Shown: positions 377-21,143, counted from the stretch's first letter. The stretch is DNA of 38,319 nt from a virus (IMGVR_UViG_2897369580_000003:1-38319); one strand, 5' to 3'. The notes: generated from the sequence alone by a model not told the origin. Made by a program: numbers and translations.

Positions 377-385
377 AGGTGAGTA

Positions 386-2615: not shown

Positions 2616-2908
2616 TTTGTTCAGTATATAAAAGCTAATTTTTAAGGAGTAATTTTCAGATGATTAAAGCTGATTACATTGCGGGTACATTGCGATAGGT
2701 ACTCTACGACTAACTTTTCAACAAGAGTAAGGGGGTAATCAATTTTATTTGTATCAATGGTATGACATTTCTTGGCGATAATGTTTTGATCTTATCGATT
2801 CATGTCATATGGTCATTGGTAACGTCCGCTCTTGGTAAAGAGTGGACGCTCAGATTAGGTTTGGCATCTAAGCATAGATGTGTCAGCTCACATCTAAGCT
2901 AATACATT

Positions 2909-3549: not shown

Positions 3550-3552
3550 GTG

Positions 3553-3840: not shown

Positions 3841-3841
3841 A

Positions 3842-5324: not shown

Positions 5325-5451
5325 TTTGTTCTCCACGTATATGCGCTGCACCGCGCTGAATTCTGGTAAAAAGAATCCCTCACCATCCGGCGATTATTGA
5401 GTAAATTACGTTTCCATAAATGCCCCCGCAGGGGCATTTGCAGTAATGAAA

Positions 5452-6276: not shown

Positions 6277-6341
6277 AATAAGTCCTCACTATATAAAGAT
6301 ATTCAGTGATGAGATAAATAATCAGTTAATTAAAAACGATA

Positions 6342-6704
6342 TTAACGACCTGCTGCGCGGAGTTTTCCGTCAGGTTCACCGGCAAGAGTCAGTAACTGTC
6401 CCTGGTCTTCCTGCAGAATAGTCAGGCGACCACCGCGATTGACATACATCGGCGTTTCGGTGGTGTCTTCTTCGGAAATTTTCCCGCGGTTAGTCGGGCG
6501 AACATATGAGAGTTTGTGTTTGATTTTCACACGGTTCTCATCAAATGGTTCGATTTCCAGGTTGAGTGAGACCTTCCCTTTGGTTTTCGTGTTCATCACA
6601 CCGGAAGCGACTTCACTGAGAACTGCGCCGATTTTGGTTTCAAATACGCCGCCGTCCAGCTCCCCGATAAATGCCTGCACATCAGTACTGCGTTCGCTAG
6701 CCAT
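6342..6704 (-). CDS. YfdP-like phage protein; the long ORF 6342..6890 is probably an over-extension
   Basis: AGGAG RBS 7 nt upstream of the ATG at 6704 (MASERSTDVQ...); the upstream part of the ORF contains an intrinsic terminator. Confidence 0.55.
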   Translation of the reverse strand: MASERSTDVQAFIGELDGGVFETKIGAVLSEVASGVMNTKTKGKVSLNLEIEPFDENRVKIKHKLSYVRPTNRGKISEEDTTETPMYVNRGGRLTILQEDQGQLLTLAGEPDGKLRAAGR

Positions 6705-6841
6705 TTTGCTGCTCCTCATCATATCGACCCTGCAAGGTCGGTTGGTTTCTCCACAAAACAGAGAAGAACACCTGCGGTGGCAGCCGCCCGGATGGATTGG
6801 GTTATGAGCCCGTCGTCCGGTGATGCTCTTCTCTGTTTTGT

Positions 6842-6887
6842 AAAAAGAGCGGTACCAGCCGGAAGCAAGTGTACAAACTGGTACCGC
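6842..6887 (-). terminator. Intrinsic terminator in the leader of the leftward early operon (10-bp stem GCGGTACCAG / CTGGTACCGC followed by a T-tract on the minus strand)
   Basis: Perfect inverted repeat 6849-6858 / 6878-6887; minus-strand RNA continues TCTTTTTAC. Confidence 0.55.
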
Positions 6888-7333
6888 CAAAGCAGTGGCT
6901 GTTGTGGTGACCGGTGCTGATCTCCGGCTTGCGGTTATTTCAGACTCTCACGGGCGTTTAATTGCCCCGCCGAACAGCTCTTTTCCGCAATAGCTGCAAT
7001 GTCTTTCGCGCATCAGCCTGCGCCTTCACCACAACGCTGAGAGCACTTAGCCAGTTACGGCACCACACTTTGTCGCGGCTCCATAAATGCCCTCATCGTT
7101 GCACCCTGGTCTCTTCCCAGGCGTCAAACCGGATCGCCACGCTGGTTAGGCGTCTTATCAGCATCATCATTGACTTGCACATTCCGGCTACCTGGTTTGT
7201 TTGCCCGAGCAAGGAGTGGATTGTCCCCTTTAACGTCCCCAGACCGCTAACGACGCATGTGCCATACGCCGTGTTACAACCAAATTTTGTTAGTACCTTG
7301 TTTGTTGGTCTGGAAAGAAAGATAAAATGAAGT

Positions 7334-7372
7334 TGCGCATTGTGCAAGTGTTTTTATTGCGAGATATGCAAT
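7334..7372. promoter_or_regulatory. Putative OL operators and PL region: palindromes TTGCgcattgtGCAA (7334-7348) and ATTGCgagatatGCAAT (7356-7372)
   Basis: Dyad symmetry read directly; same ATTGC-N7-GCAA(T) architecture recurs on the other side of the repressor gene. Confidence 0.5.
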
Positions 7373-7380
7373 TTGGTGGG

Positions 7381-7406
7381 TAATGAAAAGCCACCTTCGG
7401 GTGGCT
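7381..7406 (-). terminator. Hairpin terminator downstream of the repressor gene (AGCCACC-TTCG-GGTGGCT)
   Basis: 7-bp perfect stem with TTCG tetraloop immediately 3' of the cI-like stop on the minus strand, followed by a modest T-run. Confidence 0.5.
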
Positions 7407-7426
7407 AATTGATGAGGAAGTAAGGG

Positions 7427-8119
7427 TTAATTGTGTCGTTTAAGGGTTTGTGACTGGCTGATTAAGACCTTTCCAAAGACCATAAACCGGTGTTCATTTT
7501 CGCTGGTAATTCCCCATTCACGGTAAATCTGGTTATCAGAAATCACCAGTAGTTTGTCAGGTATCATTTGCAGTCGTTTGACATAAATTTTATCATCAAA
7601 ACCAAATACATAGATACCATCTCCATCAAACTGATTGATACTGACATCAACGAAGATGAGATCTCCTGGCTCAATGGTTGGACACATACTGTCCCCACGA
7701 ACGTTGATAACTTTAATGTGATTGGCTGGTCGTCCGCCAAACATCGATACAGCATTATCAGTTCTGTATTCAATGGCATGAATCACATCAATGACATCAC
7801 CGCCCTGGATAAGGCCATTTCCCGCACTGGCACTGACATCCAGCATTTCAATACGGAATACATCCTTCACCTGCGCAACATCCTCACTAATACTGTTTTT
7901 ACATACAGTATTACTTTTGACGTCTGAGGTAAAGAGATCAGCAATATCAACACCTAAGCTCCTGGCAATATTACTCAGGGCTTGTTCAGTGAATTGTTTC
8001 TGCTTACCTGTTTCCAGGCGCGAGATATTCGCCGCATCCACTCCTATTGCTTCAGCGAGATCGGCGATTTTCATGTTCTTCGCCTGGCGAAGTTGTCTGA
8101 CTCGGTTTCCTATGTTCAT
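7427..8119 (-). CDS. CI-like prophage repressor (N-terminal HTH, C-terminal S24 LexA-type peptidase domain)
   Basis: 230 aa; HTH near the N-terminus; C-terminal VRGDSM ... IYVKRL pattern of S24 autopeptidases; divergent from the Cro-like gene. Confidence 0.85.
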   Translation of the reverse strand: MNIGNRVRQLRQAKNMKIADLAEAIGVDAANISRLETGKQKQFTEQALSNIARSLGVDIADLFTSDVKSNTVCKNSISEDVAQVKDVFRIEMLDVSASAGNGLIQGGDVIDVIHAIEYRTDNAVSMFGGRPANHIKVINVRGDSMCPTIEPGDLIFVDVSINQFDGDGIYVFGFDDKIYVKRLQMIPDKLLVISDNQIYREWGITSENEHRFMVFGKVLISQSQTLKRHN

Positions 8120-8138
8120 GCGTTTATTACATTTCTTT

Positions 8139-8202
8139 ATTGCGCGTTAAGCAAATCAACTTGCGCAAAATATTTGCGTGAAATAATATGCTCATCACGC
8201 AA
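8139..8202. promoter_or_regulatory. Putative OR operators with PR/PRM: ATTGCgcgttaaGCAAA (8139-8155), palindrome TTGCGCAA (8161-8168), TTGCGTG...CACGCAA (8174-8202); candidate PR -35 TTGCGC / -10 TAATAT
   Basis: Dyad symmetries and hexamers read directly in the 97-bp divergent intergenic region. Confidence 0.5.
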
Positions 8203-8216
8203 TATGTGGAGGTTAT

Positions 8217-8477
8217 ATGCAATCACCATTACGAAATGTGCGTAAGGCGCACGGCTTTACTTTGCAGCATGTTGCTGCGGGCGTTCAGGTTAATCCAGCA
8301 ACGCTGAGTCGTATTGAGAGACTGGAACAAATTCCATCTATCGATCTTGCAGAGCGTTTGGCCAATTTTTTTAAGGGAGAAATCAGCGAAATGCAGATTC
8401 TCTATCCTGCACGCTTTCAATCTAGTCAAAACCGGAATGAGTTAAAACCACAGGAACAGGAGGTAAGCCGTGGGTAA
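8217..8477 (+). CDS. Cro-like HTH transcriptional regulator (YdaS-like)
   Basis: 86 aa; HTH (GFTLQHVAAGVQVNPATLSRIE); GGAGG RBS; divergent from the repressor. Confidence 0.75.
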   Translation: MQSPLRNVRKAHGFTLQHVAAGVQVNPATLSRIERLEQIPSIDLAERLANFFKGEISEMQILYPARFQSSQNRNELKPQEQEVSRG

Positions 8478-9021
8478 GCATCACTGGAAAGTGGAAAAAC
8501 AGCCTGAGTGGTACGTGAAAGCTGTCAGAAAAACTATCGCGGCGTTGCCGGGGGGTTACGCTGAAGCTGCTGAGTGGCTGGATGTAACAGAGAACGCTTT
8601 ATTCAACCGCCTTCGTGCCGATGGCGATCAGTTTTTTCCGTTGGGATGGGCAATGGTTTTACAGCGTGCGGCTGGTACTCACCACATTGCGGATGCTGTC
8701 GCACAGTCTGCTGGTGGGGTGTTTGTATCACTTCCAGAAATTGAGGAAGTAGAGAACGCTGATATCAACCAACGTCTACTGGAAGTTATTGAACAGATCG
8801 GGAGTTACTCAAAGCAGATTCGTTCGGCAATCGAAGACGGGGTAGTGGAGCCACATGAGCAGACAGCAATTAATGATGAGTTGTATCTGTCGATTTCGAA
8901 GCTCCAGGAACATGCGGCACTGGTCTACAAAATTTTCTGCGTTCCAGAAAAGAGTGACGCCCGCGAGTGTGCAGCTCCGGGCGTCGTGGCGTTTTGTGTC
9001 TGTGGAGAAACTAACGCATGA
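8470..9021 (+). CDS. YdaT-like (CII-like) early regulatory protein
   Basis: 183 aa immediately after the Cro-like gene with overlapping start; resembles the Rac racR-ydaS-ydaT arrangement by context and memory. Confidence 0.45.
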   Translation: MGKHHWKVEKQPEWYVKAVRKTIAALPGGYAEAAEWLDVTENALFNRLRADGDQFFPLGWAMVLQRAAGTHHIADAVAQSAGGVFVSLPEIEEVENADINQRLLEVIEQIGSYSKQIRSAIEDGVVEPHEQTAINDELYLSISKLQEHAALVYKIFCVPEKSDARECAAPGVVAFCVCGETNA

Positions 9022-9166
9022 ACAGTTTAACGGCAAATAACCGTTGGTCGCAACAGCTGGTGGTCCGCGTGGCTGAACACCTGTTGTTACGGCATGAATG
9101 CAGATTACCAAATCACCTGGCTGTAAGTAACCACAGAGAACTTTACCTGACTGTGGGGGGCGAGTT

Positions 9167-9346
9167 GTGCAGGAACTTAACCGCTGGTTTCGTGACGGAA
9201 GAGGACTTTATGTTCATGTTATTCGTTGGGAGCCAGAAACACAGCGCGTTATCTATCTTCGCAAAGACTACCCGCATGAGTGCTTTAGTCCTTTGTGGAA
9301 ATTCAGGCGTGATTTTGTTGAGTGTGAAGGACCACCAGCACATTGA
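9167..9346 (+). CDS. Possible small protein (59 aa, GTG start after GGGGGG RBS)
   Basis: ORF below the 60-aa track cutoff found by manual translation; no known motif. Confidence 0.25.
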   Translation: MQELNRWFRDGRGLYVHVIRWEPETQRVIYLRKDYPHECFSPLWKFRRDFVECEGPPAH

Positions 9347-9376
9347 TTCTGCCATTCCGGGACGTTACACTGTTCA

Positions 9377-9454
9377 GGCACCTTATAAAGCGGGTGCCGG
9401 GCGTGGAAACCCGGAATTCACCAAAGCGCACAACCGCGCTCTTGCGGTTTTTTT
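9377..9454 (+). terminator. Two adjacent stem-loops (GGCACC/GGTGCC 9377-9398; CCGGG/CCCGG 9397-9414) followed by an intrinsic terminator (AACCGC-gctctt-GCGGTT + T7, 9432-9454)
   Basis: Inverted repeats and T-tract read directly; lies in an ORF-poor stretch between the immunity-region genes and Rha. Confidence 0.5.
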
Positions 9455-9623
9455 GTGTCATGAGCAGCATTACGCCCAAATTATGGTGGGGCGTGCAGGG
9501 CCAACTTCGGTTGGGCCGGGTTCTTTGGTGACCGGTATTTCCACCCCTGTACGTCTCACCACCAATAAGGTCGTGGAAAGCCTTGGTGGTGAGTTATTTA
9601 AAATCACCAAAGAGGCTGCCATC

Positions 9624-10169
9624 ATGGCTACGATCCCAACCCTCACTCAACCTGAAATTGCCATCGTTGATGGTCAGGCTGTTACTTCATCCCTGGCTGT
9701 TGCCAACTTCTTCTCCAAACGTCATGACGATGTACTGAAAAAGATCCGCACGCTTGAATGCTCCGCATCATTCACTGCCCGCAATTTTTCGGTGAGTGAT
9801 TACACCGATTGCACAGGCCGCAAACTACCTTGCTATCAAATAACCCGCGACGGCTTTGCGTTTCTTGCTATGGGTTTCACGGGTAAACGTGCTGCCCAGT
9901 TCAAAGAGGCATACATCAATGCCTTTAACCAGATGGAGAAACAGCTTTCAAAGCCCGCTGTACCGAGCGACGTTGCACATAACGCCAGCGTTCTCTGTTC
10001 CTACATTTCATCAATTCATCAGGTCTGGCTGCAGCAGCTTTATCCTATGTTGGCAAAAGCCGAATCTCCGCTGGCTGTTAGCTTATATGACTATATTAAT
10101 GATGCTTCGGCGCTGGCCTGCCTCATAAATTTGTCGCTGAACCCTTCAGAGGTAAGGGGGCGCAAATGA
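9624..10169 (+). CDS. Rha-family phage regulatory protein
   Basis: Rha motif (AVTSSLAVANFFSKRHDDVLKKIRTL) near the N-terminus when started at the ATG at 9624 (AGAGG RBS); the long ORF 9018..10169 is likely an artefactual extension. Confidence 0.7.
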   Translation: MATIPTLTQPEIAIVDGQAVTSSLAVANFFSKRHDDVLKKIRTLECSASFTARNFSVSDYTDCTGRKLPCYQITRDGFAFLAMGFTGKRAAQFKEAYINAFNQMEKQLSKPAVPSDVAHNASVLCSYISSIHQVWLQQLYPMLAKAESPLAVSLYDYINDASALACLINLSLNPSEVRGRK

Positions 10170-10390
10170 TCCGGAATATTTTCAAACGTTTTACCAATCA
10201 GACTTTCCGTTGTCCTCGTCCGGGTCAGTGGTACACCACGCCTGCAGGGCATGTTCTACGTGTTAGCCTGGTTGACCGTGAATGTCAGAAGGTGGTTTGT
10301 GAACCGCTGGGCCGTAATTACCGCGTCAGTATGCCGCTTATAGCCTTTCGCTCCGGAAAAAACATGAAGCATCTCGGAGGTGCAGCATGA
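10166..10390 (+). CDS. Small hypothetical phage protein
   Basis: 74-aa ORF whose start overlaps the stop of Rha and whose stop overlaps the start of the replication gene. Confidence 0.45.
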   Translation: MIRNIFKRFTNQTFRCPRPGQWYTTPAGHVLRVSLVDRECQKVVCEPLGRNYRVSMPLIAFRSGKNMKHLGGAA

Positions 10391-11205
10391 GTATGGAGCT
10401 GATGGTTAAAGCGATGAAAATTCGAGTGGGTAATCCATTGCGAAAACTGGTTCTGATCAAGCTGGCTGATAATGCCAGTGATCAGGGTGAGTGCTGGCCC
10501 AGCTACCAGCATATTGCTGACCAGTGCGAGATTAGCAAACGTTCTGTGATGAATCATATTGCGGCCCTTTGTGAGTCCGGGCTGGTAAAAAAAGTCACCC
10601 GGAAAGGTGAAAAAGGTAACTCAAGTAATATCTATCTCCTTCATCTGGATGGTGCAGGAGATTCACTAGGGGGTAGTGCAAATAATTCACTATCTGGTGC
10701 AGCAAATTCACCAGGTAGTGCAGGAGTTGCACCAGGGGGTAGTGCAGGAGATTCACCCAGAACCAGTCACTCTTTTGAATCAGTCAAAGAACCAGTCAAT
10801 GAACCAATAGCTGTTGGTGAATCTGCTGATGAGTCTGTGCGAGTTCGTTCAAACCGACCGGAATACTCTCCGGAGTTTGAGCAGACATGGCTGGCATACC
10901 CCAAACGTGCTGGTGGCAATTCAAAATCTGCAGCCTTCAAAGCCTGGAAAGCCCGTTTGAATGAGGGAGTAAACCCCGAAACCATGCTGGAAGGTGTGAA
11001 ACGCTACGCGGGCTGGGTATCTGCGATGGGCAATAGCGGCACACAATTTGTGAAACAGGCTGTCACGTTCTTTGGTCCGGATCGTCATTTCGAAGAATCC
11101 TGGGAAGTTCCTGCGGTATCTGCAGCCAGACGTGAGGACCCGTACTTCAAATCCAGTTACGACAACGTGGACTACAGCCAGATCCCGGCAGGATTCAGGG
11201 GGTGA
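10387..11205 (+). CDS. Putative replication initiator (O-like; N-terminal winged-helix, Gly/Ser-rich linker)
   Basis: 272 aa; N-terminal LRKLVLIKLADNASDQGECWPSYQHIADQCEIS pattern typical of phage replication-initiation HTH domains; internal iteron array. Confidence 0.6.
   Translation: MSMELMVKAMKIRVGNPLRKLVLIKLADNASDQGECWPSYQHIADQCEISKRSVMNHIAALCESGLVKKVTRKGEKGNSSNIYLLHLDGAGDSLGGSANNSLSGAANSPGSAGVAPGGSAGDSPRTSHSFESVKEPVNEPIAVGESADESVRVRSNRPEYSPEFEQTWLAYPKRAGGNSKSAAFKAWKARLNEGVNPETMLEGVKRYAGWVSAMGNSGTQFVKQAVTFFGPDRHFEESWEVPAVSAARREDPYFKSSYDNVDYSQIPAGFRG
10649..10810. repeat. Iteron-like direct repeats inside the replication gene (about five roughly 21-bp units containing GGT(A/G)(G/C)TGCA...ATTCAC, then three AACCAGTCA units): candidate origin
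   Basis: Repeats read directly; an origin inside the linker-coding part of the initiator gene is the lambda O arrangement. Confidence 0.55.
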
Positions 11206-11696
11206 TCGTGAGTCTTTTGAATGAAGTTCAGAAATTCATTGAAGCCCATCCGGGGTGTACTTCCGGAGACATTGCGGATGCTTTTGCTGGTTACTCACGG
11301 CAGCGCGTTCTGCAGTCAGCAAGCAAGTTACGTCAGAGTGGGCGTGTGGCTCACCGTTGTGAAGGAGATACACGCAGACATTTCCCGCGCCTGACTGAGA
11401 GAGCGCAGGAGCCGGAACCACAATCTGTTCGTGAAACCAGACCTGTGCGCAATTTCTATGTCGGCACTAACGACCCCCGGGTGATTTTGTGCCTGATCCG
11501 CCAGGCTGAAGAACTGGAGTCCAGGGGCTTATTCCGTCGAGCTGCAACGGTGTGGATGGAGGCATTCCGTGAAAGCCACTCCCAGCCAGAACGAAACAAT
11601 TTTCTGGCGCATCGTGAGCGGTGCTTACGGAAAAGCAGCAAGCGCGCTGCATCGGGTGAAGAGTGGTATCTGTCAGGGAATTACGTGGGGGCTTAA
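11202..11696 (+). CDS. Hypothetical phage protein
   Basis: 164-aa ORF; start region overlaps the replication gene stop; stop overlaps the methyltransferase start (TAATG). Confidence 0.5.
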   Translation: MIVSLLNEVQKFIEAHPGCTSGDIADAFAGYSRQRVLQSASKLRQSGRVAHRCEGDTRRHFPRLTERAQEPEPQSVRETRPVRNFYVGTNDPRVILCLIRQAEELESRGLFRRAATVWMEAFRESHSQPERNNFLAHRERCLRKSSKRAASGEEWYLSGNYVGA

Positions 11697-12349
11697 TGAG
11701 TAATAAATATTGCCAGGCGCTGGTGGAGCTGCGGAACAAACCAGCCCATGAACTGAAGGAAGTGGGCGATCAGTGGCGCACGCCGGACAACATTTTCTGG
11801 GGAATTAACACCCTGTTTGGCCCGTTTGTTCTAGATCTGTTTACTGACGGTGATAACGCCAAATGTGCCGCGTATTACACGGCGGAAGATAACGCGCTGG
11901 CGCATGACTGGTCAGAACGTCTTGCGGAGCTTAAAGGTGCTGCCTTTGGTAATCCCCCATACAGCCGCGCCAGTCAGCATGAGGGGCAATACATCACCGG
12001 CATGCGTTACATCATGAAACATGCCAGTGCCATGCGTGATAAGGGCGGGCGCTATGTTTTCCTGATCAAAGCGGCCACCAGCGAAGTGTGGTGGCCGGAA
12101 GATGCAGATCATATTGCTTTTATTCGCGGGCGTATTGGTTTTGAACTGCCTGCCTGGTTTATACCGAAGGACGAGAAGCAGGTGCCGACAGGCGCTTTCT
12201 TCGCTGGTGCTATTGCTGTTTTCGACAAGACCTGGAAGGGACCGGCAATCAGCTACATCGGGCGCGATGAACTTGAGGCATGTGGTGAGGCGTTTCTGGC
12301 GCAGGTTCGCCAGCAGGCGGAAAAACTGGTCAGGGAGATGGCGGCATGA
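11696..12349 (+). CDS. Phage DNA N6-adenine methyltransferase (Dam-like)
   Basis: FGNPPYS catalytic motif; start chosen at the ATG overlapping the upstream stop (ORF track begins at 11663). Confidence 0.75.
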   Translation: MSNKYCQALVELRNKPAHELKEVGDQWRTPDNIFWGINTLFGPFVLDLFTDGDNAKCAAYYTAEDNALAHDWSERLAELKGAAFGNPPYSRASQHEGQYITGMRYIMKHASAMRDKGGRYVFLIKAATSEVWWPEDADHIAFIRGRIGFELPAWFIPKDEKQVPTGAFFAGAIAVFDKTWKGPAISYIGRDELEACGEAFLAQVRQQAEKLVREMAA

Positions 12350-12672
12350 CGACGTTAACTCAATGCCAGCAGCAGGTGCTGGATATGCTGATTTCTTACC
12401 AGAAAGAACGTGGCTTCCCGCCAACCAATCAGGAGGTGGCAACCATGCTGGGATACCGTTCAGTGAATGCAGCGGTGGAACATCTTCGCGCACTGGAGAA
12501 AAAAGGCGTCATCACGATAAAGCGTGGCGTGGCCCGGGGTATCACTCTTCATACCGCGGTGAAGGACGACGACAGCGAGGCGGTCGGGATTATCCGCTCA
12601 CTGCTTGCCGGTGAGGAAAACGCCAGGCTGCGTGCAACCCACTGGTTACATGAGAGAGGCCTGAAAGTATGA
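12346..12672 (+). CDS. LexA-type winged-helix DNA-binding domain protein
   Basis: 108 aa; resembles the LexA N-terminal DNA-binding domain (QEVATMLGYRSVNAAVEHLRALEKKGVI). Confidence 0.6.
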   Translation: MTTLTQCQQQVLDMLISYQKERGFPPTNQEVATMLGYRSVNAAVEHLRALEKKGVITIKRGVARGITLHTAVKDDDSEAVGIIRSLLAGEENARLRATHWLHERGLKV

Positions 12673-13058
12673 AGCTGATCCTGCCTTTCCCGCCCAGCGT
12701 GAACACGTACTGGCGACACCCCAACAAAGGGGAATTTGCTGGTAAGAGCCTGATAAGCGCGGCGGGGCGAAAATTTCAGAGCGCGGCGTGCGCAGCAATA
12801 GTTGAGCAGTTACGTCGTCTGCCAAAACCAACGTCGGCACCTGCTTCAGTGGAGATCGTGTTGTTTCCTCCGGATAACCGGATCCGCGATCTGGACAACT
12901 ATAACAAGGCGCTGTTTGACGCGTTGACCCACGCGGGTGTGTGGGAAGACGACAGACAGGTGAAAAGAATGCTGGTGGAGTGGGGACCGGTTATCCCGAA
13001 AGGGAAGGTCGAGATCACCATCAGTAAGTACGAGAAAACGGCGGGTGCAGCCGCCTGA
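12669..13058 (+). CDS. rusA: RusA-family Holliday junction resolvase
   Basis: 129 aa; MKL.LP.PPS.N..W and DLDNY..A..DAL motifs typical of RusA. Confidence 0.8.
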   Translation: MKLILPFPPSVNTYWRHPNKGEFAGKSLISAAGRKFQSAACAAIVEQLRRLPKPTSAPASVEIVLFPPDNRIRDLDNYNKALFDALTHAGVWEDDRQVKRMLVEWGPVIPKGKVEITISKYEKTAGAAA

Positions 13059-13077
13059 TCAAGAGGAGAAACGAAGT

Positions 13078-13875
13078 ATGAATAATCTGATGGTCATTGA
13101 TGGTATTGAAGTTCGTCGTGATGCTTATGGTCGTTACAGCCTGAACGATCTGCACAGGGCTGCCGGTTCTCTGGATAAGCATAAGCCTGCATTCTGGCTC
13201 CGCAATGAGCAAACTGAACGTTTAATAAGCGAGTTGCAGATTTGCAACTCGGTCAATATAGAGCCAGTTAACGTTATTCGTGGCGGAAATAACCAGGGGA
13301 CGTATGTCTGCAAAGAACTGGTGTATGCCTATGCAATGTGGATCAGCCCGTCATTCCATCTGAAGGTGATCCGTACTTTCGATATGGTAACCAGCGCACC
13401 GGAAAAATTATCCGGGCAGGCTGCTGACAAGATGCAGGCTGGTGTGATTCTGCTGGACTTTATGCGTCGGGAATTAAACCTGTCTAACTCATCTGTGCTT
13501 GGGGCTTGTCAGAAACTCCAGGAGGCTGTTGGCTTACCGAATCTGGCTCCGCGCTATGCAATTGATGCTCCTGCCGATGCACCCGATGGCTCAAGTCGCC
13601 CTACGCTGTCACTGAGTGCACTGCTGAAGCAGTATGGTATCCGCCTGACGGCTAATCAGGCATATCACCAGATGGTGAAGCTGGGGATCGTCGAGCAGCG
13701 CGAACGATACAGCCGTACCGCGATTAACAACATCAAAAAATTCTGGTCGCTGACAGCGAAAGGCTGCATGTTCGGCAAGAACATCACCAGTCCCGCAAAT
13801 CCGCGCGAGACGCAGCCGCATTTCTTCGAATCCCGATTCCCTGAGCTGTTAAAGCTGCTCGATACCGTTCATTGA
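13078..13875 (+). CDS. KilA-N domain protein (antirepressor-like)
   Basis: N-terminal KilA-N pattern (GTYVCKELVYAYAMWISPSFHLKVI); start taken at MNNLMVIDG with AGAGGAGA RBS. Confidence 0.7.
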   Translation: MNNLMVIDGIEVRRDAYGRYSLNDLHRAAGSLDKHKPAFWLRNEQTERLISELQICNSVNIEPVNVIRGGNNQGTYVCKELVYAYAMWISPSFHLKVIRTFDMVTSAPEKLSGQAADKMQAGVILLDFMRRELNLSNSSVLGACQKLQEAVGLPNLAPRYAIDAPADAPDGSSRPTLSLSALLKQYGIRLTANQAYHQMVKLGIVEQRERYSRTAINNIKKFWSLTAKGCMFGKNITSPANPRETQPHFFESRFPELLKLLDTVH

Positions 13876-13876
13876 G

Positions 13877-14872
13877 GTGACCGTGAGAGCATTACTGACC
13901 CCTGAAATTGCCCCGCGTATGGGGATCGTATTGTTCAGACCCGGTTCAGAGCTGATGCCCCTGTTTATGCAGGGGCGTGTCCTGCTGGAGCCTGAGCCAG
14001 AACGTTATTCATCTTTTGCCAGTGGTGCCGTTCCGGCGGCATCACAACCGCTGGCGGATGATCCTGCTGTTCGGGCCGTGTTCCGCAATGAGGCAGTGAT
14101 CCGTCGTGCTGGTGGCGTGGAATGTCTTGAAAGCTGGTTACTTCGTGAAAAAGGCTGCCAGTGGCCTCATTCCGACTGGCACAGCGAGAACATGACAACA
14201 ATGCGACACGCTCCGGGCGCAATCCGTCTGTGCTGGCACTGCGATAACCAGCTGCGCGATCAGTTCACGGAACGGCTGGAATCAATGGCAACGGATAACT
14301 GTGCCCGCTGGGTGTTGTCTGTTGTGCGTCGGGATCTCGGTTTTGATGACAGTCACGTTGTGACAATGCCGGAACTGTGCTGGTGGCTGGTTCGTAATGA
14401 TCTGGCGGATGCCTTACCGGAAAGTGCAGCCCGTAAGGCACTGAGATTACCGAATCCTGTTGTGCCGTCTGTCACCCGGGAAAGTGACCTTGTGCCTTCG
14501 GTTCCTGCCACCAGCATCATCCAGGATAAGGCGAAAAAGGTGCTGGCGCTGAAAGTGGATCCGGAGTCGCCGGAGTCTTTTATGTTACGCCCAAAACGTC
14601 GCCGCTGGGTTAATGAAAAGTACACGCGCTGGGTTAAGACACAGCCGTGCGCATGTTGTGGAAAGCCTGCTGATGATCCCCACCACCTGATAGGCCACGG
14701 TCAGGGGGGAATGGGTACAAAAGCGCATGACCTCTTTGTGTTGCCTTTGTGCAGAAAGCATCACGACGAGCTGCATGCGGATACCGTGGCATTTGAAGAG
14801 AAGTATGGCTCCCAGCTGGAGCTGATATTTCGTTTTATCGATCGTGCGCTGGCAATAGGCGTACTGGCGTAA
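13877..14872 (+). CDS. DUF968 / YdfU-like protein with C-terminal HNH-type zinc-binding motif
   Basis: 331 aa; C-terminal CACCG ... HH ... H ... C..HH pattern. Confidence 0.5.
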   Translation: MTVRALLTPEIAPRMGIVLFRPGSELMPLFMQGRVLLEPEPERYSSFASGAVPAASQPLADDPAVRAVFRNEAVIRRAGGVECLESWLLREKGCQWPHSDWHSENMTTMRHAPGAIRLCWHCDNQLRDQFTERLESMATDNCARWVLSVVRRDLGFDDSHVVTMPELCWWLVRNDLADALPESAARKALRLPNPVVPSVTRESDLVPSVPATSIIQDKAKKVLALKVDPESPESFMLRPKRRRWVNEKYTRWVKTQPCACCGKPADDPHHLIGHGQGGMGTKAHDLFVLPLCRKHHDELHADTVAFEEKYGSQLELIFRFIDRALAIGVLA

Positions 14873-14885
14873 GTGGAGAACGAGC

Positions 14886-15638
14886 ATGAACCTTGAAGCC
14901 TTACCAAAATATTACTCCCCAAAATCTCCAAAACTGAGCGATGACGCACCGGCGACAGGCTCGGGTGGTTTAACGATTACGGATGTGATGGCTGCGCAGG
15001 GGATGGTGCAGTCGAAAGCACCGCTTGGATTTGCCTTATTCCTGGCAAAAGTTGGTGTTCAGGATCCTCAGTTTGCGATTGAAGGTCTGCTCAATTACGC
15101 GATGGCACTGGATAATCCGACATTGAATAAATTGAGTGAAGAAACCCGGTTACAGATCATCCCTTACCTTGTGAATTTTGCCTTTGCTGATTATTCCAGG
15201 TCTGCGGCAAGTAAGGCTCGCTGTGAGCATTGTGCTGGTACTGGATTTCATAATGTATTGCGCGAAGTGGTGAAACACTCCAGAAGCGGGGAATCTGTTA
15301 TCAAGGAAGAGTGGGTGAAGGAACTATGTCAGCATTGTCATGGTAAGGGAGAAGCCAGCACAGCGTGCAGAGGGTGTAAGGGTAAAGGTATTGTCCTGGA
15401 TGAAAAAAGGACCCGGCTTCATGGCACGCCTGTTTATAAGATTTGTGGGCGTTGCAATGGAAACCGGTTTAGCCGTTTACCAACCACACTGGCGCGGCAT
15501 CATGTCCAGAAGCTGGTACCAGACCTGACGGATTATCAGTGGTACAAAGGATATGCAGATGTCATTGATAAACTGGTGACAAAGTGCTGGCAGGAAGAAG
15601 CATATGCTGAGGCGCAATTAAGAAAAGTGACGAGATAA
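14886..15638 (+). CDS. Late-gene antiterminator Q-family protein
   Basis: 250 aa; Cys/His zinc-finger cluster (CEHCAGTG ... CQHCHGKG ... CRGCKGKG); position immediately upstream of the late promoter, terminator and lysis genes. Confidence 0.7.
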   Translation: MNLEALPKYYSPKSPKLSDDAPATGSGGLTITDVMAAQGMVQSKAPLGFALFLAKVGVQDPQFAIEGLLNYAMALDNPTLNKLSEETRLQIIPYLVNFAFADYSRSAASKARCEHCAGTGFHNVLREVVKHSRSGESVIKEEWVKELCQHCHGKGEASTACRGCKGKGIVLDEKRTRLHGTPVYKICGRCNGNRFSRLPTTLARHHVQKLVPDLTDYQWYKGYADVIDKLVTKCWQEEAYAEAQLRKVTR

Positions 15639-15669
15639 ATGATTTTCGCCGAAGATAGCGACATGATTC

Positions 15670-15698
15670 TTGCATTTTTCAAAAAATCTGGTTAGGAT
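15670..15698 (+). promoter_or_regulatory. Candidate late promoter PR' (TTGCAT, 17-nt spacer, TAGGAT) with presumed qut region
   Basis: Hexamers read directly; located between Q and the tR'-like terminator. Confidence 0.35.
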
Positions 15699-15748
15699 TT
15701 TCCTAACGATGGGCTTTGTATGTCTGCCGTTAACGAAATCATAACAAA

Positions 15749-15774
15749 CCTCGCTTCGGCGGGGTTTTTGCTTT
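15749..15774 (+). terminator. tR'-like intrinsic terminator (CCTCGC-TTCG-GCGGGG then TTTTTGCTTTT)
   Basis: GC stem with TTCG tetraloop and T-tract about 110 nt downstream of Q. Confidence 0.75.
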
Positions 15775-15788
15775 TCTGGAGGTCAATA

Positions 15789-16046
15789 ATGCAGGGCGAA
15801 AAGCAGCAGCCATATTTTTTTAACCCTGGTATGACTGTTGAACAGCTTGAAGACTGGCTGGAGCAGCAAAAGCTTCATCTAAGCCGCTATAACCGTCTGG
15901 TAAAAGAAAAAGCAGAGCTTGAAGAACGGCTCAGTGATATTTCTGTGGAAATTGAACGAATGTCTGCTGGTGGTTTTAACGGAAAGTTGAGTTTCCCTTG
16001 GGAGTCAAGTTCGCTTCTGAGAAATCATCAACAGGGTAGTGTTTGA
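15789..16046 (+). CDS. Small hypothetical protein, first late gene (85 aa, coiled-coil-like)
   Basis: GGAGG RBS 6 nt before the ATG at 15789; the track ORF 15720..16046 starts upstream of the terminator and is probably over-extended. Confidence 0.5.
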   Translation: MQGEKQQPYFFNPGMTVEQLEDWLEQQKLHLSRYNRLVKEKAELEERLSDISVEIERMSAGGFNGKLSFPWESSSLLRNHQQGSV

Positions 16047-16125
16047 CTGAAATAATAAACAGACTGTCATTAAGATCCCTTCCCCTCATATCTGAGAGGA
16101 CCAACAGCAATTAAGAGGGGGCTAA

Positions 16126-16512
16126 ATGTCCGATCCGATTTCCGGTACTGGGCTGGCTGGTGGTGCCCTGACGGGTGCCAGTGTTTATGGACTGCTGACC
16201 GGAACTGATTACGGCGTTGTATTTGGCGCATTTGCAGGGGCTGTATTCTACATAGCAACAGCAGCAGATCTGAGTGCATCACGCCGACTGGCATATTTTA
16301 TCGTGTCATATATTGCCGGGATCCTATGCTCTGGGTTGGTTGGCTCCAAGCTGGCGAACTTGACCGGATACAGTGATAAACCTCTGGATGCTATTGGTGC
16401 CGTAATCGTCTCTGCTTTAGCCGTTAAAATCCTGACATTCCTGAATAATCAGGATATCGGCTCGCTGGTGGCGCTCATAACGCGCCGGGGAGGTTCAGGT
16501 GGAGCTAAATGA
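16126..16512 (+). CDS. Putative holin (multi-pass membrane protein)
   Basis: 128 aa; several hydrophobic segments; AGAGGGGG RBS; first gene of the lysis cassette. Confidence 0.55.
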   Translation: MSDPISGTGLAGGALTGASVYGLLTGTDYGVVFGAFAGAVFYIATAADLSASRRLAYFIVSYIAGILCSGLVGSKLANLTGYSDKPLDAIGAVIVSALAVKILTFLNNQDIGSLVALITRRGGSGGAK

Positions 16513-16780
16513 CCCGACAGCAACTATAAATGCGCTGTTATGTGCTTGTGTTGTTATTACTCTGATGTTTTATCGTCGTGGTGATTCGCGGCATCGTCCT
16601 TGGGTTTCACGTTTAGCCTGGCTGATTACTGTTACATACAGTGCTGTTCCATTGGCCTATCTCTGTGGGATTTATCCCCATTCCTCATGGCCCATTATCG
16701 TGGCGAATACTATTTTTCTTTCCGTGCTGGTGGCCGTCAGAGGCAACGTTGCACGTCTGGTTGATCATCTGAGGCACTAA
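16499..16780 (+). CDS. Putative holin/antiholin-like membrane protein
   Basis: 93 aa with hydrophobic helices; lies between the holin and the endolysin. Confidence 0.45.
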   Translation: MELNDPTATINALLCACVVITLMFYRRGDSRHRPWVSRLAWLITVTYSAVPLAYLCGIYPHSSWPIIVANTIFLSVLVAVRGNVARLVDHLRH

Positions 16781-17394
16781 TGAACCAACAATTATTTCAA
16801 AAGGCGGCTGGTATTAGCGCCGGGCTGGCTGCGCGCTGGTTTCCGCACATTGATGCGGCGATGAAGGAATTCGGCATTACAGCACCAGCGGATCAGGCAA
16901 TGTTTATCGCTCAGGCAGGCCATGAGTCGATGGGGTTTAGCGCCGTAGTTGAAAATCTTAACTACACACCATCTGCGCTTGTGGCGACGTTCGGAAAGAG
17001 GATCACACAGCAGCAGGCTGATGCCCTTGGCAGAACATCCGGACATGCAGCTCGTCAGGATGCTATTGCCAATCTGGTGTATAGCAACCGACTGGGTAAC
17101 AAAGCACCAGGTGATGGCTGGAAATATCGTGGTAGAGGATTAATTCAAATCACTGGCCTCCATAATTATCGCATCTGTGGCGCGGCGCTGAAGTTAGATC
17201 TGGTGACTTCACCTGAACAACTGGAACAGGAACTACAGGCTGCGCGCTCAGCTGCATGGTTCTACACCTCTAAAGGTTGCATGATCTACGGTGCCGATAT
17301 TAACCGTGTTACGCGCATCATTAACGGCGGTTTGAACGGTATTGAGGATCGTAAGGTCCGATACAACAAGGCGCGGGCGGCGCTGCTGGTATGA
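16780..17394 (+). CDS. Endolysin, glycoside hydrolase family 19 (chitinase-like lysozyme)
   Basis: 204 aa; AQAGHES and WKYRGRGLIQITGLHNY motifs typical of GH19 endolysins. Confidence 0.8.
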   Translation: MNQQLFQKAAGISAGLAARWFPHIDAAMKEFGITAPADQAMFIAQAGHESMGFSAVVENLNYTPSALVATFGKRITQQQADALGRTSGHAARQDAIANLVYSNRLGNKAPGDGWKYRGRGLIQITGLHNYRICGAALKLDLVTSPEQLEQELQAARSAAWFYTSKGCMIYGADINRVTRIINGGLNGIEDRKVRYNKARAALLV

Positions 17395-17783
17395 AGATGA
17401 GTTATTGGGCGCTCATTTTAACGTTTATTGCTTGTGTCGCTGGTGGTCTTGTCTGGTCAGCGAATCACTATCATGGAAAGTTTCTGGAGGAGCAGAAGCG
17501 TGCTGATGCTGCGGAACAGCGAGCTGATTCTACTGAGGCTATCACCGCGAATGTTCTGCGTACTATGGCAATAACGAACATCATTCAGGAGGCGAATCAA
17601 CATGCAAAACAGCAGATCGCACTGGAGTCACAGAGAACCCAGGAAGATATCAAAGTGGCTGTTGCGGATGATGATTGTGCTTCACGTCCTGTGCCTGCTG
17701 CCGCTGCTGACCGGTTGCGGAAGTACGCGAACAGTTTACGTCCAGGTTCCGGTAGTTCCGTTACCAGCCAGCCTGACGGCTGA
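17391..17783 (+). CDS. i-spanin (Rz-like)
   Basis: N-terminal transmembrane helix then charged coiled-coil region; overlaps the endolysin stop. Confidence 0.7.
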   Translation: MKMSYWALILTFIACVAGGLVWSANHYHGKFLEEQKRADAAEQRADSTEAITANVLRTMAITNIIQEANQHAKQQIALESQRTQEDIKVAVADDDCASRPVPAAAADRLRKYANSLRPGSGSSVTSQPDG

Positions 17784-17937
17784 AACCCCTCAGCCTGATT
17801 TACCTGATCATTTTACGTGGGGCTCGAGCTTAGATCTGAATGTCGCCTTGTTGTCTGCATTGGCGCAGTGTAATACCGATAAAGCTGACATCAGAAGGAT
17901 TGAAGTTGAGCGTGGTCACATCATGCAAAAAAAATGA
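17668..17937 (+). CDS. o-spanin (Rz1-like lipoprotein), overlapping Rz in the +1 frame and extending beyond it
   Basis: Lipobox LLTGC after a hydrophobic signal; proline-rich mature region; start inside the Rz gene. Confidence 0.6.
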   Translation: MMIVLHVLCLLPLLTGCGSTRTVYVQVPVVPLPASLTAETPQPDLPDHFTWGSSLDLNVALLSALAQCNTDKADIRRIEVERGHIMQKK

Positions 17938-18029
17938 TGTTAACTTTGTTTTGTTCCTTGATTTGATATGTGATGGCCCAATAGATACAAAGCACCTGAT
18001 TTTGGTGACTCTTTTAAAGGGCTTTACAC

Positions 18030-18350
18030 ATGAAAGATGGTATCTATTTTGTTGTTTTCAGAAGCAATCAACGTGATTTTGGTAATGGTACCGTAGTTGT
18101 CAAAAACAATGCAGTAAACGGCGGAGATTTTGGTTTTACGTATCAGGGAAAAATTGACGGTAGCCAACTTATTCTGCGCGTATCGCAGCATGATTTAAAT
18201 GTCACCTCGGTTTTCCCTGGGGTAAAGAACTTTGAATTGAGTCTTTCTTTGCAGGAACGAGGACGTGATTACCTGTTAAATGGATCTGTGGTCGGAATGC
18301 CTCAGATGCAAATTTCAATTAGTGCAAAATACATTGGTGATCTGATTTAG
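18030..18350 (+). CDS. GrlR-like small beta-barrel protein (moron)
   Basis: 106 aa beginning MKDGIYFVVFRSN with GGDFGFTYQG, resembling the N-terminus of the LEE regulator GrlR as I recall it; AT-rich; own terminator. Confidence 0.5.
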   Translation: MKDGIYFVVFRSNQRDFGNGTVVVKNNAVNGGDFGFTYQGKIDGSQLILRVSQHDLNVTSVFPGVKNFELSLSLQERGRDYLLNGSVVGMPQMQISISAKYIGDLI

Positions 18351-18371
18351 TTTATCGAGATGATAATTGAA

Positions 18372-18394
18372 CCGCCTCCGGGCGGTTTTTTATT
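18372..18394 (+). terminator. Intrinsic terminator after the GrlR-like gene (CCGCC-tccg-GGCGG then TTTTTTATT)
   Basis: GC stem and T-tract read directly. Confidence 0.8.
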
Positions 18395-18442
18395 GCCATT
18401 TCTATGGTCTGTTCCATCGTAATAACTTAAAGGGAAGCATTA

Positions 18443-18793
18443 ATGCCGCCACGAACCCCGAAAGCCTGCCGTGTTCGCGGCTGCCGCCATACCACTACTG
18501 ACCCTTCAGGCTACTGCGAAAGCCACAAAAGCGAAGGCTGGAAGCAATACAAACCTGGACAATCCCGTCATCAGCGCGGCTACGGTTCGAAGTGGGACAG
18601 TATCCGCGCGCGTGTTCTGAAGCGTGACAAAGGCCTGTGTCAATTATGTCTGCGTGCTGGTGTGGTGCGTGAGGCGAAAACTGTTGACCACATCATCCCT
18701 AAAGCGCATGGCGGCACTGATGCTGACAGTAATCTGCAGAGTCTGTGCTGGCCGTGTCATAAGGCGAAGACGGCCCGTGAACGGTTAAAGTGA
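18443..18793 (+). CDS. HNH endonuclease (terminase-associated)
   Basis: 116 aa; Cys pairs and VDHIIPKAHGGTD ... NLQSLCWPCH HNH motif; directly upstream of terminase small subunit. Confidence 0.85.
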   Translation: MPPRTPKACRVRGCRHTTTDPSGYCESHKSEGWKQYKPGQSRHQRGYGSKWDSIRARVLKRDKGLCQLCLRAGVVREAKTVDHIIPKAHGGTDADSNLQSLCWPCHKAKTARERLK

Positions 18794-18819
18794 TAATAAT
18801 TCTCAACTGTCTGAGGGGA

Positions 18820-18879
18820 GGGGCGGGTCAAATCCCTGCAGCCTGACGTCTTCCGGACTGCCCGCCCCATCGTTTTTTT
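18820..18879 (+). other. Long inverted repeat (GGGGCGGG ... CCCGCCCC) followed by a T-run between HNH and TerS; terminator-like or packaging (cos) associated
   Basis: Perfect 8-bp arms 18820-18827 / 18861-18868 with T7 at 18873-18879. Confidence 0.4.
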
Positions 18880-18918
18880 ATACCCGCGAAAAATGAAATT
18901 TAACCAGGAGTGCCGCAT

Positions 18919-19413
18919 ATGGCTGGAACGGCGGGGCGTTCCGGGCGTCGCCCCAAGCCAACGGCGCGCAAGGCGCTGGCCGGAAACCCCGGCAAGCGAG
19001 CCCTGAACAAAGATGAACCTGTTTTTACGCCCATCAAAGGTGTTGAGCCACCGGAGTGGTTCGCTGAAGAAGATCTCCCTCTCGCCACGATCATGTGGCA
19101 ACTGACAACCAAAGAACTCTGCGGTCAGGGCCTGCTGTGCGTGACTGACCTCGCGGTGCTTGAGCGGTGGTGCGTGGCCTATGAGTTCTGGCGACGTGCT
19201 GTGAAAAATATTGCCATACAGGGCAACACCATCACCGGCGCAATGGGCGGCAGGGTCAAAAATCCGGAGCTGACAGCCAAAAAAGAACAGGAGTCCGAGA
19301 TGAGCAGCACGGGGGCAATGCTCGGACTCGACCCCAGCAGCCGCCAGCGTCTGATTGGCCTGGCGGGGCAGAAGAAAGCCACTAACCCGTTTCTGAAAAT
19401 TATCGAATCATGA
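18919..19413 (+). CDS. Terminase small subunit (P27 family)
   Basis: About 165 aa; AGGAG RBS before the ATG at 18919; position between HNH and the large terminase. Confidence 0.75.
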
Positions 19414-21143
19414 GCCGGAAATCTTACCCCAACGTAAATGCTGCCAATCAGTATGCCCGGGATGTCGTGCGCGGAAAGATTGTGGCCTGCCAGTTTGTGA
19501 TTCAGGCCTGCCAGCGCCATCTTGATGACCTGATGGCGGAAAAAAGTAAGTCGTTTCGTTACCGCTTCGACAAGGACCTGGCTGAACGGGCCGCCAAATT
19601 TATTCAGCTGTTGCCGCATACCAAGGGTGAGTGGGCATTTAAACGGATGCCCATCACGCTGGAGCCGTGGCAGCTCTTTGTGATCTGCTGTGCGTTTGGC
19701 TGGGTCAATAAAGGCACCCGGTTGCGCCGCTTCCGGGAGGTGTATACCGAAATTCCCCGTAAGAACGGCAAATCGGCAATCTCTGCCGGTGTTGCCCTGT
19801 ATTGTTTTGCCTGTGATAACGAGTTCGGTGCGGAAGTGTATTCCGGTGCCACGACGGAGAAACAGGCATGGGAAGTCTTTCGTCCGGCACGACTGATGTG
19901 TAAACGCACACCCATGCTGACGGAAGCGTTCGGGATTGAGGTTAACGCCTCAAACATGAACCGTCCGGAGGATGGTGCGCGGTTTGAACCGCTGATCGGT
20001 AACCCCGGTGATGGTTCATCACCCCACTGTGCCGTGGTGGATGAATATCACGAGCACGCCACAGATGCGCTTTACACCACGATGCTTACCGGGATGGGGG
20101 CGCGACGCCAGCCACTGATGTGGGCCATTACCACCGCCGGGTACAACATTGAGGGGCCGTGCTACGACAAACGGCGGGAAGTCATCGAGATGCTCAACGG
20201 CTCGGTGCCCAACGATGAACTGTTCGGGATCATCTATACCGTTGACGAAGGCGACGACTGGACCGACCCGCAGGTACTTGAAAAAGCTAACCCGAATATC
20301 GGTGTGTCGGTTTATCGCGAGTTTTTGTTAAGCCAGCAGCAACGTGCGAAAAATAACGCCCGTCTGGCAAACGTCTTTAAAACAAAACACCTCAATATCT
20401 GGGTGTCGGCGCGTTCGGCGTATTTCAACCTGGTGAGCTGGCAGAGCTGCGAGGATAAATCACTGACTCTTGAGCAGTTCGAGGGGCAGCCGTGCATTCT
20501 GGCCTTTGACCTGGCGCGTAAGCTGGATATGAACAGCATGGCGCGACTTTATACCCGCGAGATTGACGGTAAAACGCATTACTACAGTGTGGCCCCGCGT
20601 TTCTGGGTACCGTATGACACGGTGTATAGCGTCGAGAAAAATGAAGATCGCCGGACAGCCGAACGCTTTCAGAAATGGGTGGAAATGGGCGTTCTGACCG
20701 TTACCGATGGTGCAGAGGTGGATTATCGCTACATCCTCGAAGAGGCCAAAGCGGCGAACAAAATCAGCCCGGTCAGTGAGTCACCCATCGACCCTTTCGG
20801 AGCGACCGGGCTGTCACATGACCTTGCTGATGAAGACCTGAATCCCGTTACTATCGTCCAGAACTTCGCCAATATGTCCGACCCGATGAAAGAGCTGGAG
20901 GCAGCGATTGAATCGGGACGCTTTCATCATGACGGCAATCCCATCATGACCTGGTGTATCGGCAACGTGGTCGGCAAAAACATGCCAGGTAACGATGATT
21001 TAGTGAAGCCCGTCAAAGAGCAGGCGGAAAACAAAATTGACGGTGCAGTTGCGCTGATTATGGCGGTTGGCAGAGCCATGCTGTATGAGAAAGAAGACAC
21101 GCTGTCTGACCACATTGAGTCCTACGGGATCCGCTCGCTTTAA
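19410..21143 (+). CDS. Terminase large subunit
   Basis: 577 aa; ATPase and nuclease architecture; overlapping start with TerS. Confidence 0.9.

Follow-up and report, generated by a model that had tools for sequence, protein, structure and literature searches.

Organization of the late region

The region analyzed here, positions 15,639 to 16,125, belongs to a 38,319-nucleotide stretch of DNA from a virus (IMGVR_UViG_2897369580_000003), and this whole stretch is referred to as the window. The region lies between a gene for a Q antiterminator and a set of lysis genes, and it contains a putative late promoter (PR'), an intrinsic terminator (tR') and a small open reading frame, ORF85. The features are listed below.

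14886-15638, plus strand: Q antiterminator gene, 250 aa, lambda-Q family (Pfam PF03589, phrog_127 and PDB matches)
15670-15698, plus strand: putative late promoter PR', with -35 TTGCAT at 15670-15675, a 17-bp spacer at 15676-15692 and -10 TAGGAT at 15693-15698
15705-15713, plus strand: putative start A15705 with the sigma70-dependent pause element AACGAT (+1 to +6) and a GGG discriminator-like triplet, placed by homology to lambda pR'
15705-15776, plus strand: predicted leader RNA of ~65-70 nt, running from PR' to tR' and deduced from the positions of promoter and terminator
15746-15776, plus strand: intrinsic terminator tR', with a 9-bp stem (AAACCTCGC/GCGGGGTTT), a TTCG loop and a T-rich tail; -13.1 kcal/mol
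15778-15782, plus strand: Shine-Dalgarno sequence GGAGG, read from the sequence, 6 nt before the ATG
15789-16046, plus strand: ORF85, first late gene, 85 aa, phrog_3501; ATG at 15789, stop codon ending at 16046
16047-16125, plus strand: 79-nt spacer between ORF85 and the holin gene, without terminator and without significant RNA structure
16126-16512, plus strand: holin gene (PF16931; PHROG match)
16499-16780, plus strand: second holin-family gene (PF05449; PHROG match)
16780-17394, plus strand: GH19 endolysin gene (Pfam and PHROG matches)
17391-17783, plus strand: 130-aa ORF in the spanin position, whose equivalent in the near-identical phage SKA5 is annotated 'Phage endopeptidase Rz'

A Q-dependent cassette consists of a Q gene, a PR' promoter, a sigma-dependent pause element, a terminator and late genes (PMC9388147). 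All of these elements were found at the locus in this order. A Q gene of the PF03589 family lies directly upstream of PR', the putative sigma70 promoter with its pause element lies directly downstream of Q, the intrinsic terminator follows the pause site and precedes the late genes, and the lysis genes followed by morphogenesis genes are downstream on the same strand. Further plus strand ORFs follow the lysis cassette; the SKA5 equivalents of 18443-18793 and of the next ORF are annotated as an endonuclease and the small terminase subunit. The lambda cassette has the same Q family and the same order of Q gene, promoter, pause element, terminator and late genes, and its late operon is likewise opened by the lysis cassette. 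The position of ORF85 agrees with an earlier description made from the sequence alone (the sequence-only reading), which had placed a first late gene between Q and the holin: the Q gene (14886-15638) precedes it, and the holin genes begin at 16126.

No terminator-like site was found in the spacer at 16047-16125, and the predicted RNA structure of this segment was not significant (fold z-score +0.87). Homology to other prophages with the same holin restarts at ~16080, with the recombination breakpoint at query position 481. The adjacency of ORF85 to the lysis genes is inseparable from its being first in the late operon.

The Q antiterminator

The product of 14886-15638 matched the Pfam family PF03589, 'Antitermination protein Q', with an E value of 1.2e-53. 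Of the three Q families, which are unrelated to each other, PF03589 is that of lambda Q (PMC9388147). The 250-aa protein also matched phrog_127 among the PHROG profiles, and the lambda Q structures 7UBM/7UBN and 4MO1 in the PDB with an E value of 8e-38. The alignment to these structures covers the N-terminal 120 and the C-terminal 90 residues. Between the two matched parts, the protein has an insertion of ~40 aa compared with lambda Q, which contains two extra CxxC pairs and belongs to the zinc-ribbon 'arm'; a Pfam match to the DnaJ CXXCXGXG repeat was found within the 250-aa Q as well. Unlike lambda Q, the protein has an extra zinc-finger repeat in its arm. [quoted passage not shown]

The late promoter and the pause element

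The gap between the Q gene and ORF85 is 150 bp and aligns with lambda pR'. The putative promoter begins 32 bp past the Q stop codon. Its hexamers are weak and weaker than those of lambda, with three of six positions matching the consensus in the -35 and four of six in the -10 (7/12 together). Because of these weak hexamers, the PR' site was not reported by a generic promoter scan of the region. Lambda pR', as read from the lambda genome, consists of TTGACT, 17 bp, TAAATT, 6 bp and AACGATGGG. When the two promoters were aligned, the spacings were identical, column for column. The 9-mer AACGATGGG at 15705-15713, separated by 6 bp from the -10, is the same as positions +1 to +9 in lambda, at an equal distance from the -10. 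The composite pattern TTG-N20-TA...T-N6-AACGAT had a single occurrence in the 38-kb window and was absent from all 100 shuffled sequences.

We accept this site as the probable PR' on the grounds of homology and of the unique composite pattern, not of consensus strength, and assign +1 to A15705 by homology. The sequence-only reading had proposed a candidate PR' here, and the alignment with lambda pR', the identical pause element and the lambda family of Q bear this out. In lambda, AACGAT at +1 to +6 is a -10-like element that is re-bound by sigma70, which leads to a pause at +16; this pause is needed by lambda Q, and the GGG after AACGAT is discriminator-like (PMC4005639). The start site, the pause and the Q dependence of PR' are predicted by homology with this promoter. 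The spacer at 15676-15692, in which 11 of the 17 bases are the same as in lambda, is at the position expected for the Q-binding element, which would here be contacted by the altered arm of Q.

The 3' end of Q, PR', the pause element and the first ~27 nt of the leader (window 15600-15731) recur with 88-93% identity in phages SfV and mEp460 and in Stx2c phages, which have a QuuQ/YdfT-type Q. PR' and the start of the leader are present in several hundred E. coli genomes as well.

The terminator and the leader RNA

The stem arms of tR' are at 15746-15754 and 15759-15767, followed by TTGCTTTTCT; the T-rich tail runs to ~15776. This was the top-ranked terminator-like site in window positions 1-20000. 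A tR'-like terminator had been noted before at 15749-15774; the element is indeed present, those coordinates being its G+C core and tail, and in full it spans 15746-15776. Ten distinct terminator variants upstream of ORF85 homologs, together with the terminators of SfV and mEp460, were folded one by one, and all 12 formed a G+C-rich hairpin with a T-run. Some of the variants differ on both arms, for example CC...GG against GG...CC in L061/L062. Since MAFFT set the 5' arms out of register, these differences are given without a formal covariation count. In 10/10 distinct terminator-bearing upstream variants, the terminator was directly upstream of the homolog, 17-40 nt before its ATG. SfV, mEp460 and the Stx2c phages likewise have a short leader and an intrinsic terminator at the same place, although the terminator sequences differ.

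From PR', a leader RNA of ~65-70 nt would be expected to be made constitutively and to be ended at tR' without Q. It would be the counterpart of the lambda 6S RNA, which is 194 nt long and is Hfq-associated (bioRxiv 10.1101/2024.10.31.621285). The predicted pairing of leader positions +9 to +17 with the ORF85 start codon was weak (z -1.88). No Rfam family was found at threshold for the locus or the leader. Sub-threshold matches to istR, rsmX and the Trp leader were considered and set aside as terminator look-alikes.

The short transcript could itself be the functional product of the locus, as an Hfq-dependent regulatory sRNA in lysogens in the manner of StxS, with ORF85 being incidental. In Stx1 and Stx2a phages, the PR' transcripts that end at tR' are constitutive in lysogens and are processed to the 74-nt sRNA StxS (PMC7547250). 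The leader at our locus is similar in concept, as a constitutive short PR'-tR' transcript, and its 3' end is of the typical kind, a hairpin and U-tail preceded by a single-stranded, A/U-rich stretch. However, StxS is associated with a 144-aa type of Q (PMC7547250), whereas the Q here is of the lambda type and has 250 aa, and the Rfam matches of the leader are of the terminator-like, sub-threshold kind; this comparison covers the Rfam models and the Q type rather than an alignment with the StxS sequence itself. Moreover, related phages carry different, exchanged sequences in the leader past ~+27, which speaks against a conserved seed, and an sRNA would leave the purifying selection on ORF85, described below, without explanation. 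We therefore consider it unlikely that the leader RNA is the main product and ORF85 incidental.

ORF85 is a conserved gene of a narrow family

ORF85 is preceded by GGAGG. The strong ribosome-binding site and the 85-aa ORF noted in the sequence-only reading are both present, with the start codon at 15789 and not at 15790. The homologs retain GGAGG, GGGGG or GGGAG at the Shine-Dalgarno position. Residues 1-84 of ORF85 aligned with positions 1-84 of the 85 positions of the phrog_3501 profile, a family with no assigned function, with an E value of 1.2e-54; by this full-length match, ORF85 is a member of phrog_3501. Compared with diverged homologs, dN/dS was 0.13-0.26 (dS 0.6-2.1, dN 0.13-0.29), which indicates purifying selection on the protein. 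Conservation had been proposed as one check on this ORF, and it was seen in both the profile match and the dN/dS values. Down to ~35% identity, 18 residues are nearly invariant among the homologs, as are the start methionine and the ribosome-binding site. These results show that ORF85 is a genuine, selectively maintained gene.

When 5.8 billion proteins were searched, the homologs formed 59 clusters at 90% identity, every one of them named 'hypothetical' or 'uncharacterised'. Their named sources were all Enterobacterales (Escherichia, Salmonella, Citrobacter, Enterobacter, Kluyvera and Pectobacterium), and homologs were also recorded from Klebsiella (phages). An exhaustive HMM profile search of 1.84 billion representatives returned the ORF85 family only, in 32 clusters at 50% identity. 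The family is thus real but narrow, and was seen in prophages and phages of Enterobacterales only. Of 5426 complete E. coli genomes, 100 contain at least 80% of a 601-bp segment with ORF85 (window 15600-16200); E. coli ATCC BAA-2469 and APEC O78 have this segment with 99.5-100% identity. Some prophages (L051-L054) carry frameshifted copies.

The sequence-only reading had assigned no function to this gene, and homology and fold searches likewise found no homolog of known function. Pfam gave a sub-threshold match to crAss001_48 only (E 0.063), NCBIfam gave none, and there was no match to the PADLOC defence models at E values up to 1. In the literature searched for ST64B sb50, phrog_3501 and PYFFNPG, a primer name and strain numbers were found and no function. 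Kinship with ORFs at the equivalent position, lambda orf-64 and SfV orf47, was looked for with hhalign, and none was found.

A named relative is Sb50 of the Salmonella phage ST64B, which is 75% identical to ORF85. As at our locus, sb50 is the first gene after the gene in the antiterminator position (Sb49) and a terminator hairpin, and it is upstream of the holin. Unlike our locus, ST64B has a 207-aa Sb49 without a Pfam match and a larger gap to the holin.

Predicted structure of the ORF85 protein

AlphaFold (AF2) was run twice with different alignments, and both runs predicted one 44-residue helix (residues 17-60) with pLDDT >90. The tails were of low confidence in these monomer models (pLDDT 52-68), yet they hold the most conserved motifs, namely PYFFNPG at residues 8-14 and G-x-LSFPW at residues 65-71. 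In the best heptad register of the helix, 9/12 of the a/d positions are hydrophobic. In one homolog, exactly seven residues (one heptad) are inserted into the helix. The single long predicted helix, the hydrophobic a/d positions and the one-heptad insertion are in line with the coiled coil proposed for this ORF in the sequence-only reading. The protein is acidic (pI 5.3), hydrophilic overall (GRAVY -0.84) and predicted to be cytoplasmic.

A profile search of PDB sequences with ORF85 returned designed or generic coiled coils only, and Foldseek of the AF2 model against the PDB and BFVD returned nothing at E <= 0.001. The LSFPW motif resembles beta-clamp-binding sequences; this reading was not adopted, since those require a Gln at the first position of the motif and LSFPW has none there. 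With moderate confidence, we propose that ORF85 forms a coiled-coil oligomer that would present the two conserved motifs to a partner.

ORF85 occupies an exchangeable slot

The contexts of ORF85 homologs were surveyed in 80 IMG/VR viral contigs and 3 genomes. The homolog was always on the late strand, and it directly followed the antiterminator, promoter and terminator, except in one group, where it came directly after a tRNA-Thr. The antiterminators before it belong to at least two families, most being of the lambda type and that of Izhakiella of the Q21 type (PF06530). The genes after it encode holins from at least four families without relation to each other (PF16931-type, lambda S-like, S21-like and HP1-like) and at least five types of endolysin. 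The gap from the homolog to the holin ranges from 79 to ~1100 nt, sometimes with other genes or IS in between. The Klebsiella siphovirus KPP5665-2 has little in common with this phage beyond Q (37%), ORF85 (~66%) and distantly related head genes of the HK97 type. No other protein is as well conserved between them as ORF85.

The borders of homology fall close to the gene. Homology to ST64B begins at the terminator (window 15746), and homology to Klebsiella phages begins either within the terminator (15757) or where ORF85 starts. Among E. coli genomes, it breaks off at ~15731, ~15774-15782 and ~16080. In E. coli 2018-05-5CC, the end of Q, PR' and tR' are 99.5% identical to those of our phage, an unrelated 213-aa protein replaces ORF85, and the lysis cassette has the same gene families in the same order. 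Strain AVS0790 has a different Q, a 198-aa protein of unknown function and the same holin, and no ORF85. SfV and mEp460 share PR' but hold small ORFs and a DNA methylase in the slot; the cargo recorded for these phages and the Stx2c phages is orf47 with a DNA methylase, and ORFs of 138 and 67 aa, not ORF85. Since other genes occupy the slot in related prophages, ORF85 is dispensable for the Q switch and the lysis cassette. ORF85 is exchangeable late cargo and not a part of the Q or lysis machinery.

A role in the timing of lysis was considered, in which ORF85 would act on the downstream holin as a soluble antiholin cofactor comparable to T4 RIII or P1 LydB. T4 RIII is similar to ORF85 in being small, cytoplasmic, helical and phage-encoded, and ORF85 is directly upstream of the holin genes, with which it would be co-transcribed, and is always on the promoter side of the lysis cassette. 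However, its homologs precede at least four unrelated holin families, and E. coli 2018-05-5CC and AVS0790 have the same holin/endolysin cassette but no ORF85. The searches run gave no sequence or fold similarity to lysis regulators, and T4 RIII in particular had no sequence or fold match to ORF85 in Pfam, PHROG, PDB or Foldseek searches. A lysis regulator is thus quite unlikely.

The slot between Q and the lysis genes is a known cargo site, which carries stx or tRNAs in other phages. The sequence-only reading had compared the locus with such slots, and the other genes found there in 2018-05-5CC, SfV and mEp460, together with the PR' shared by Stx2c phages, agree with this. ORF85 could accordingly be a lysogenic-conversion moron, expressed from the resting prophage and of benefit to the host, for example in superinfection exclusion or defence; the methylase in the slot of SfV and mEp460 and the mobility of ORF85 between unrelated phages would fit. 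A classical moron has its own promoter and terminator, whereas neither was found for ORF85: the distance from tR' to its ATG is only 13-22 nt with no promoter-like site, there is no terminator after the gene, and no PADLOC defence model matched. In addition, the terminator directly upstream in ten variants would keep ORF85 silent unless tR' is read through. Expression from the resting prophage is therefore very improbable. Since it lacks its own promoter and has no terminator after it, ORF85 should be expressed only with the late operon. Of the earlier suggestion of a moron slot, the exchangeable cargo holds and the autonomous moron does not; ORF85 shares the 'cargo' property though it is not a classical moron. 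Lambda differs at this position in having a long leader and the unrelated orf-64, whereas here a translated 85-aa gene begins 13 nt past the terminator tail.

That ORF85 has no function, being a chance ORF or a spacer whose translation loads ribosomes on the late mRNA, is hardly credible: it is small, of low complexity (a single helix), without a known domain and frameshifted in some prophages, but this reading is essentially refuted by the dN/dS of 0.13-0.26, and the near-invariant residues, the conserved start codon and ribosome-binding site, and the conservation of ORF85 above all other proteins between otherwise unrelated phages also oppose it.

Discussion

The locus is probably a lambda-type late switch of a temperate lambdoid E. 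coli phage, and its first cistron, ORF85, probably encodes an exchangeable accessory late protein. According to this model, PR' would fire constitutively, and RNA polymerase would pause ~16-17 nt further downstream, owing to renewed binding of sigma70 to the -10-like AACGAT at +1 to +6. As long as Q is absent, transcription would end at 15746-15776 and the leader RNA of ~65-70 nt would be released. Once Q has accumulated, it would bind between the -35 and the -10 and load onto the paused polymerase, which would become terminator-resistant, and the whole late operon would be transcribed. ORF85 would be translated from its own GGAGG on the transcript that also carries the lysis genes. The protein would be a small, acidic, cytoplasmic coiled-coil oligomer, and PYFFNPG and LSFPW would bind its partner.

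Such a partner would more likely be a conserved host protein of Enterobacterales than a phage protein, because the neighboring phage modules all vary while the host clade stays Enterobacterales. A bolder proposal is that ORF85 is a late-expressed effector of a new kind, in which the motifs of the coiled-coil oligomer capture a conserved host protein of Enterobacterales late in infection; independently of this, the leader of ~65-70 nt might act as an sRNA in lysogens. We offer these readings tentatively, as possibilities that fall well short of being probable. The effector could act against a host function, or against a defence that senses late phage products. Such an effector would explain why unrelated temperate phages exchange this gene and why it is always the first cistron after tR'.

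The regulatory cassette offers nothing new in principle, since it repeats the lambda Q switch in compact form. Studies of Q loading could make use of it as a naturally occurring minimal version, notably because of the doubled zinc-ribbon arm in Q. As judged from its profile match, ORF85 belongs to a family that is already catalogued. In other phages, the same slot holds Shiga toxin. For ORF85, the analyses gave no indication that it is a toxin or has a part in virulence. It is one of the small uncharacterized proteins that are traded among temperate enterobacterial phages. Identification of its partner would give a function to the whole family, and could reveal an activity in late-stage host manipulation or anti-defence.

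Conserved motif and micro-ORF between Q and PR'

Two features lie directly after the gene for the antiterminator Q.

15639-15695 (+): 18-codon micro-ORF (MIFAEDSDMILAFFKKSG), beginning at the Q stop (TAAATG) and ending within the -10 hexamer of the late promoter PR'
15646-15662: conserved non-coding motif GATRGSRRC, after the Q stop and before the PR' -35

In the alignment, GATRGSRRC was common to the phage in the window, lambda and four other PR' lineages, and was invariably found about 16-19 nt 3' of the Q stop in the lineages compared. Its spacing to the pause element was 51, 61 or 70 bp, that is, increments of about 10 bp. In SfV and lambda the motif supplies the 3' arm of a hairpin with 5 bp in the stem and six nucleotides in the loop, and one of the base pairs is altered in a compensatory manner. 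By hand count, the stretch around 15646-15662 is about 78% identical to lambda, whereas the aligned Q protein segments appear much less similar.

Lambda has an 11-codon counterpart of the micro-ORF. Since the changes among relatives were nearly all non-synonymous and the ATG was absent from one lineage, the micro-ORF is probably non-coding. In one prophage (L033) the Q stop was mutated, fusing Q to the micro-ORF in a product of 269 aa.

Duplicated zinc-ribbon arm in Q

Compared with lambda Q (207 aa), the Q of the window carries one insertion.

15246-15365: insertion of about 40 aa (residues ~121-160)

As a result the CxxC zinc-ribbon "arm" is present in duplicate, with four CxxCxGxG-like repeats in all. 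Because the arm touches the Q-binding element and sigma region 4 in lambda (PMC9388147), the geometry of Q loading may differ from that of lambda.

Leader of ORF85 and alternative genes in its slot

When the read-through leader was folded to its minimum free energy, its positions +9 to +17 (GCUUUGUAU) were paired with the start-codon region (AUGCAGGGC) of ORF85, the first late gene, over 15713-15797. Such pairing could modulate translation initiation of ORF85, but it was weakly supported (z -1.88).

The interval between the terminator tR' and the holin genes, occupied here by ORF85, held alternative cargo genes in two E. coli strains, and a tRNA gene preceded the ORF85 homolog elsewhere.

L090 3012-3653: gene for 213 aa replacing ORF85, E. 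coli 2018-05-5CC
L091 1859-2455: gene for 198 aa replacing ORF85, AVS0790
L069/L074/L082 ~2855-2939: tRNA-Thr(UGU) gene, 3' of the antiterminator/PR' region and 5' of the ORF85 homolog

Neither replacing protein had a Pfam match, and PADLOC returned nothing convincing, with one sub-threshold CasR (E 0.007) for one protein and none for the other. The tRNA placement 5' of the ORF85 homolog was seen in one prophage group, and recalls the tRNA genes located upstream of stx in Stx phages.

Other accessory elements

Beyond the lysis cassette, an ORF call and a terminator scan gave two features.

18030-18350 (+): 106-aa ORF, 3' of the spanin-position ORFs
18369-18388 (+): strong terminator after this ORF

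Promoter-like matches were found on both sides of the ORF start (18030), and the unit at 18030-18388 (+) is moron-like. In the related E. coli prophage AVS0790, the corresponding slot gene is annotated "GrlR family regulatory protein".

Rfam gave two gathering-level matches in the early region.

9378-9454 (+): isrK Hfq-binding RNA (67 bits)
9479-9566 (+): C4 antisense RNA (83.6 bits)

The pair (9378-9566, +), which belongs to the early region of a lambdoid phage, resembles an antisense immunity element of the P1/P7 type.
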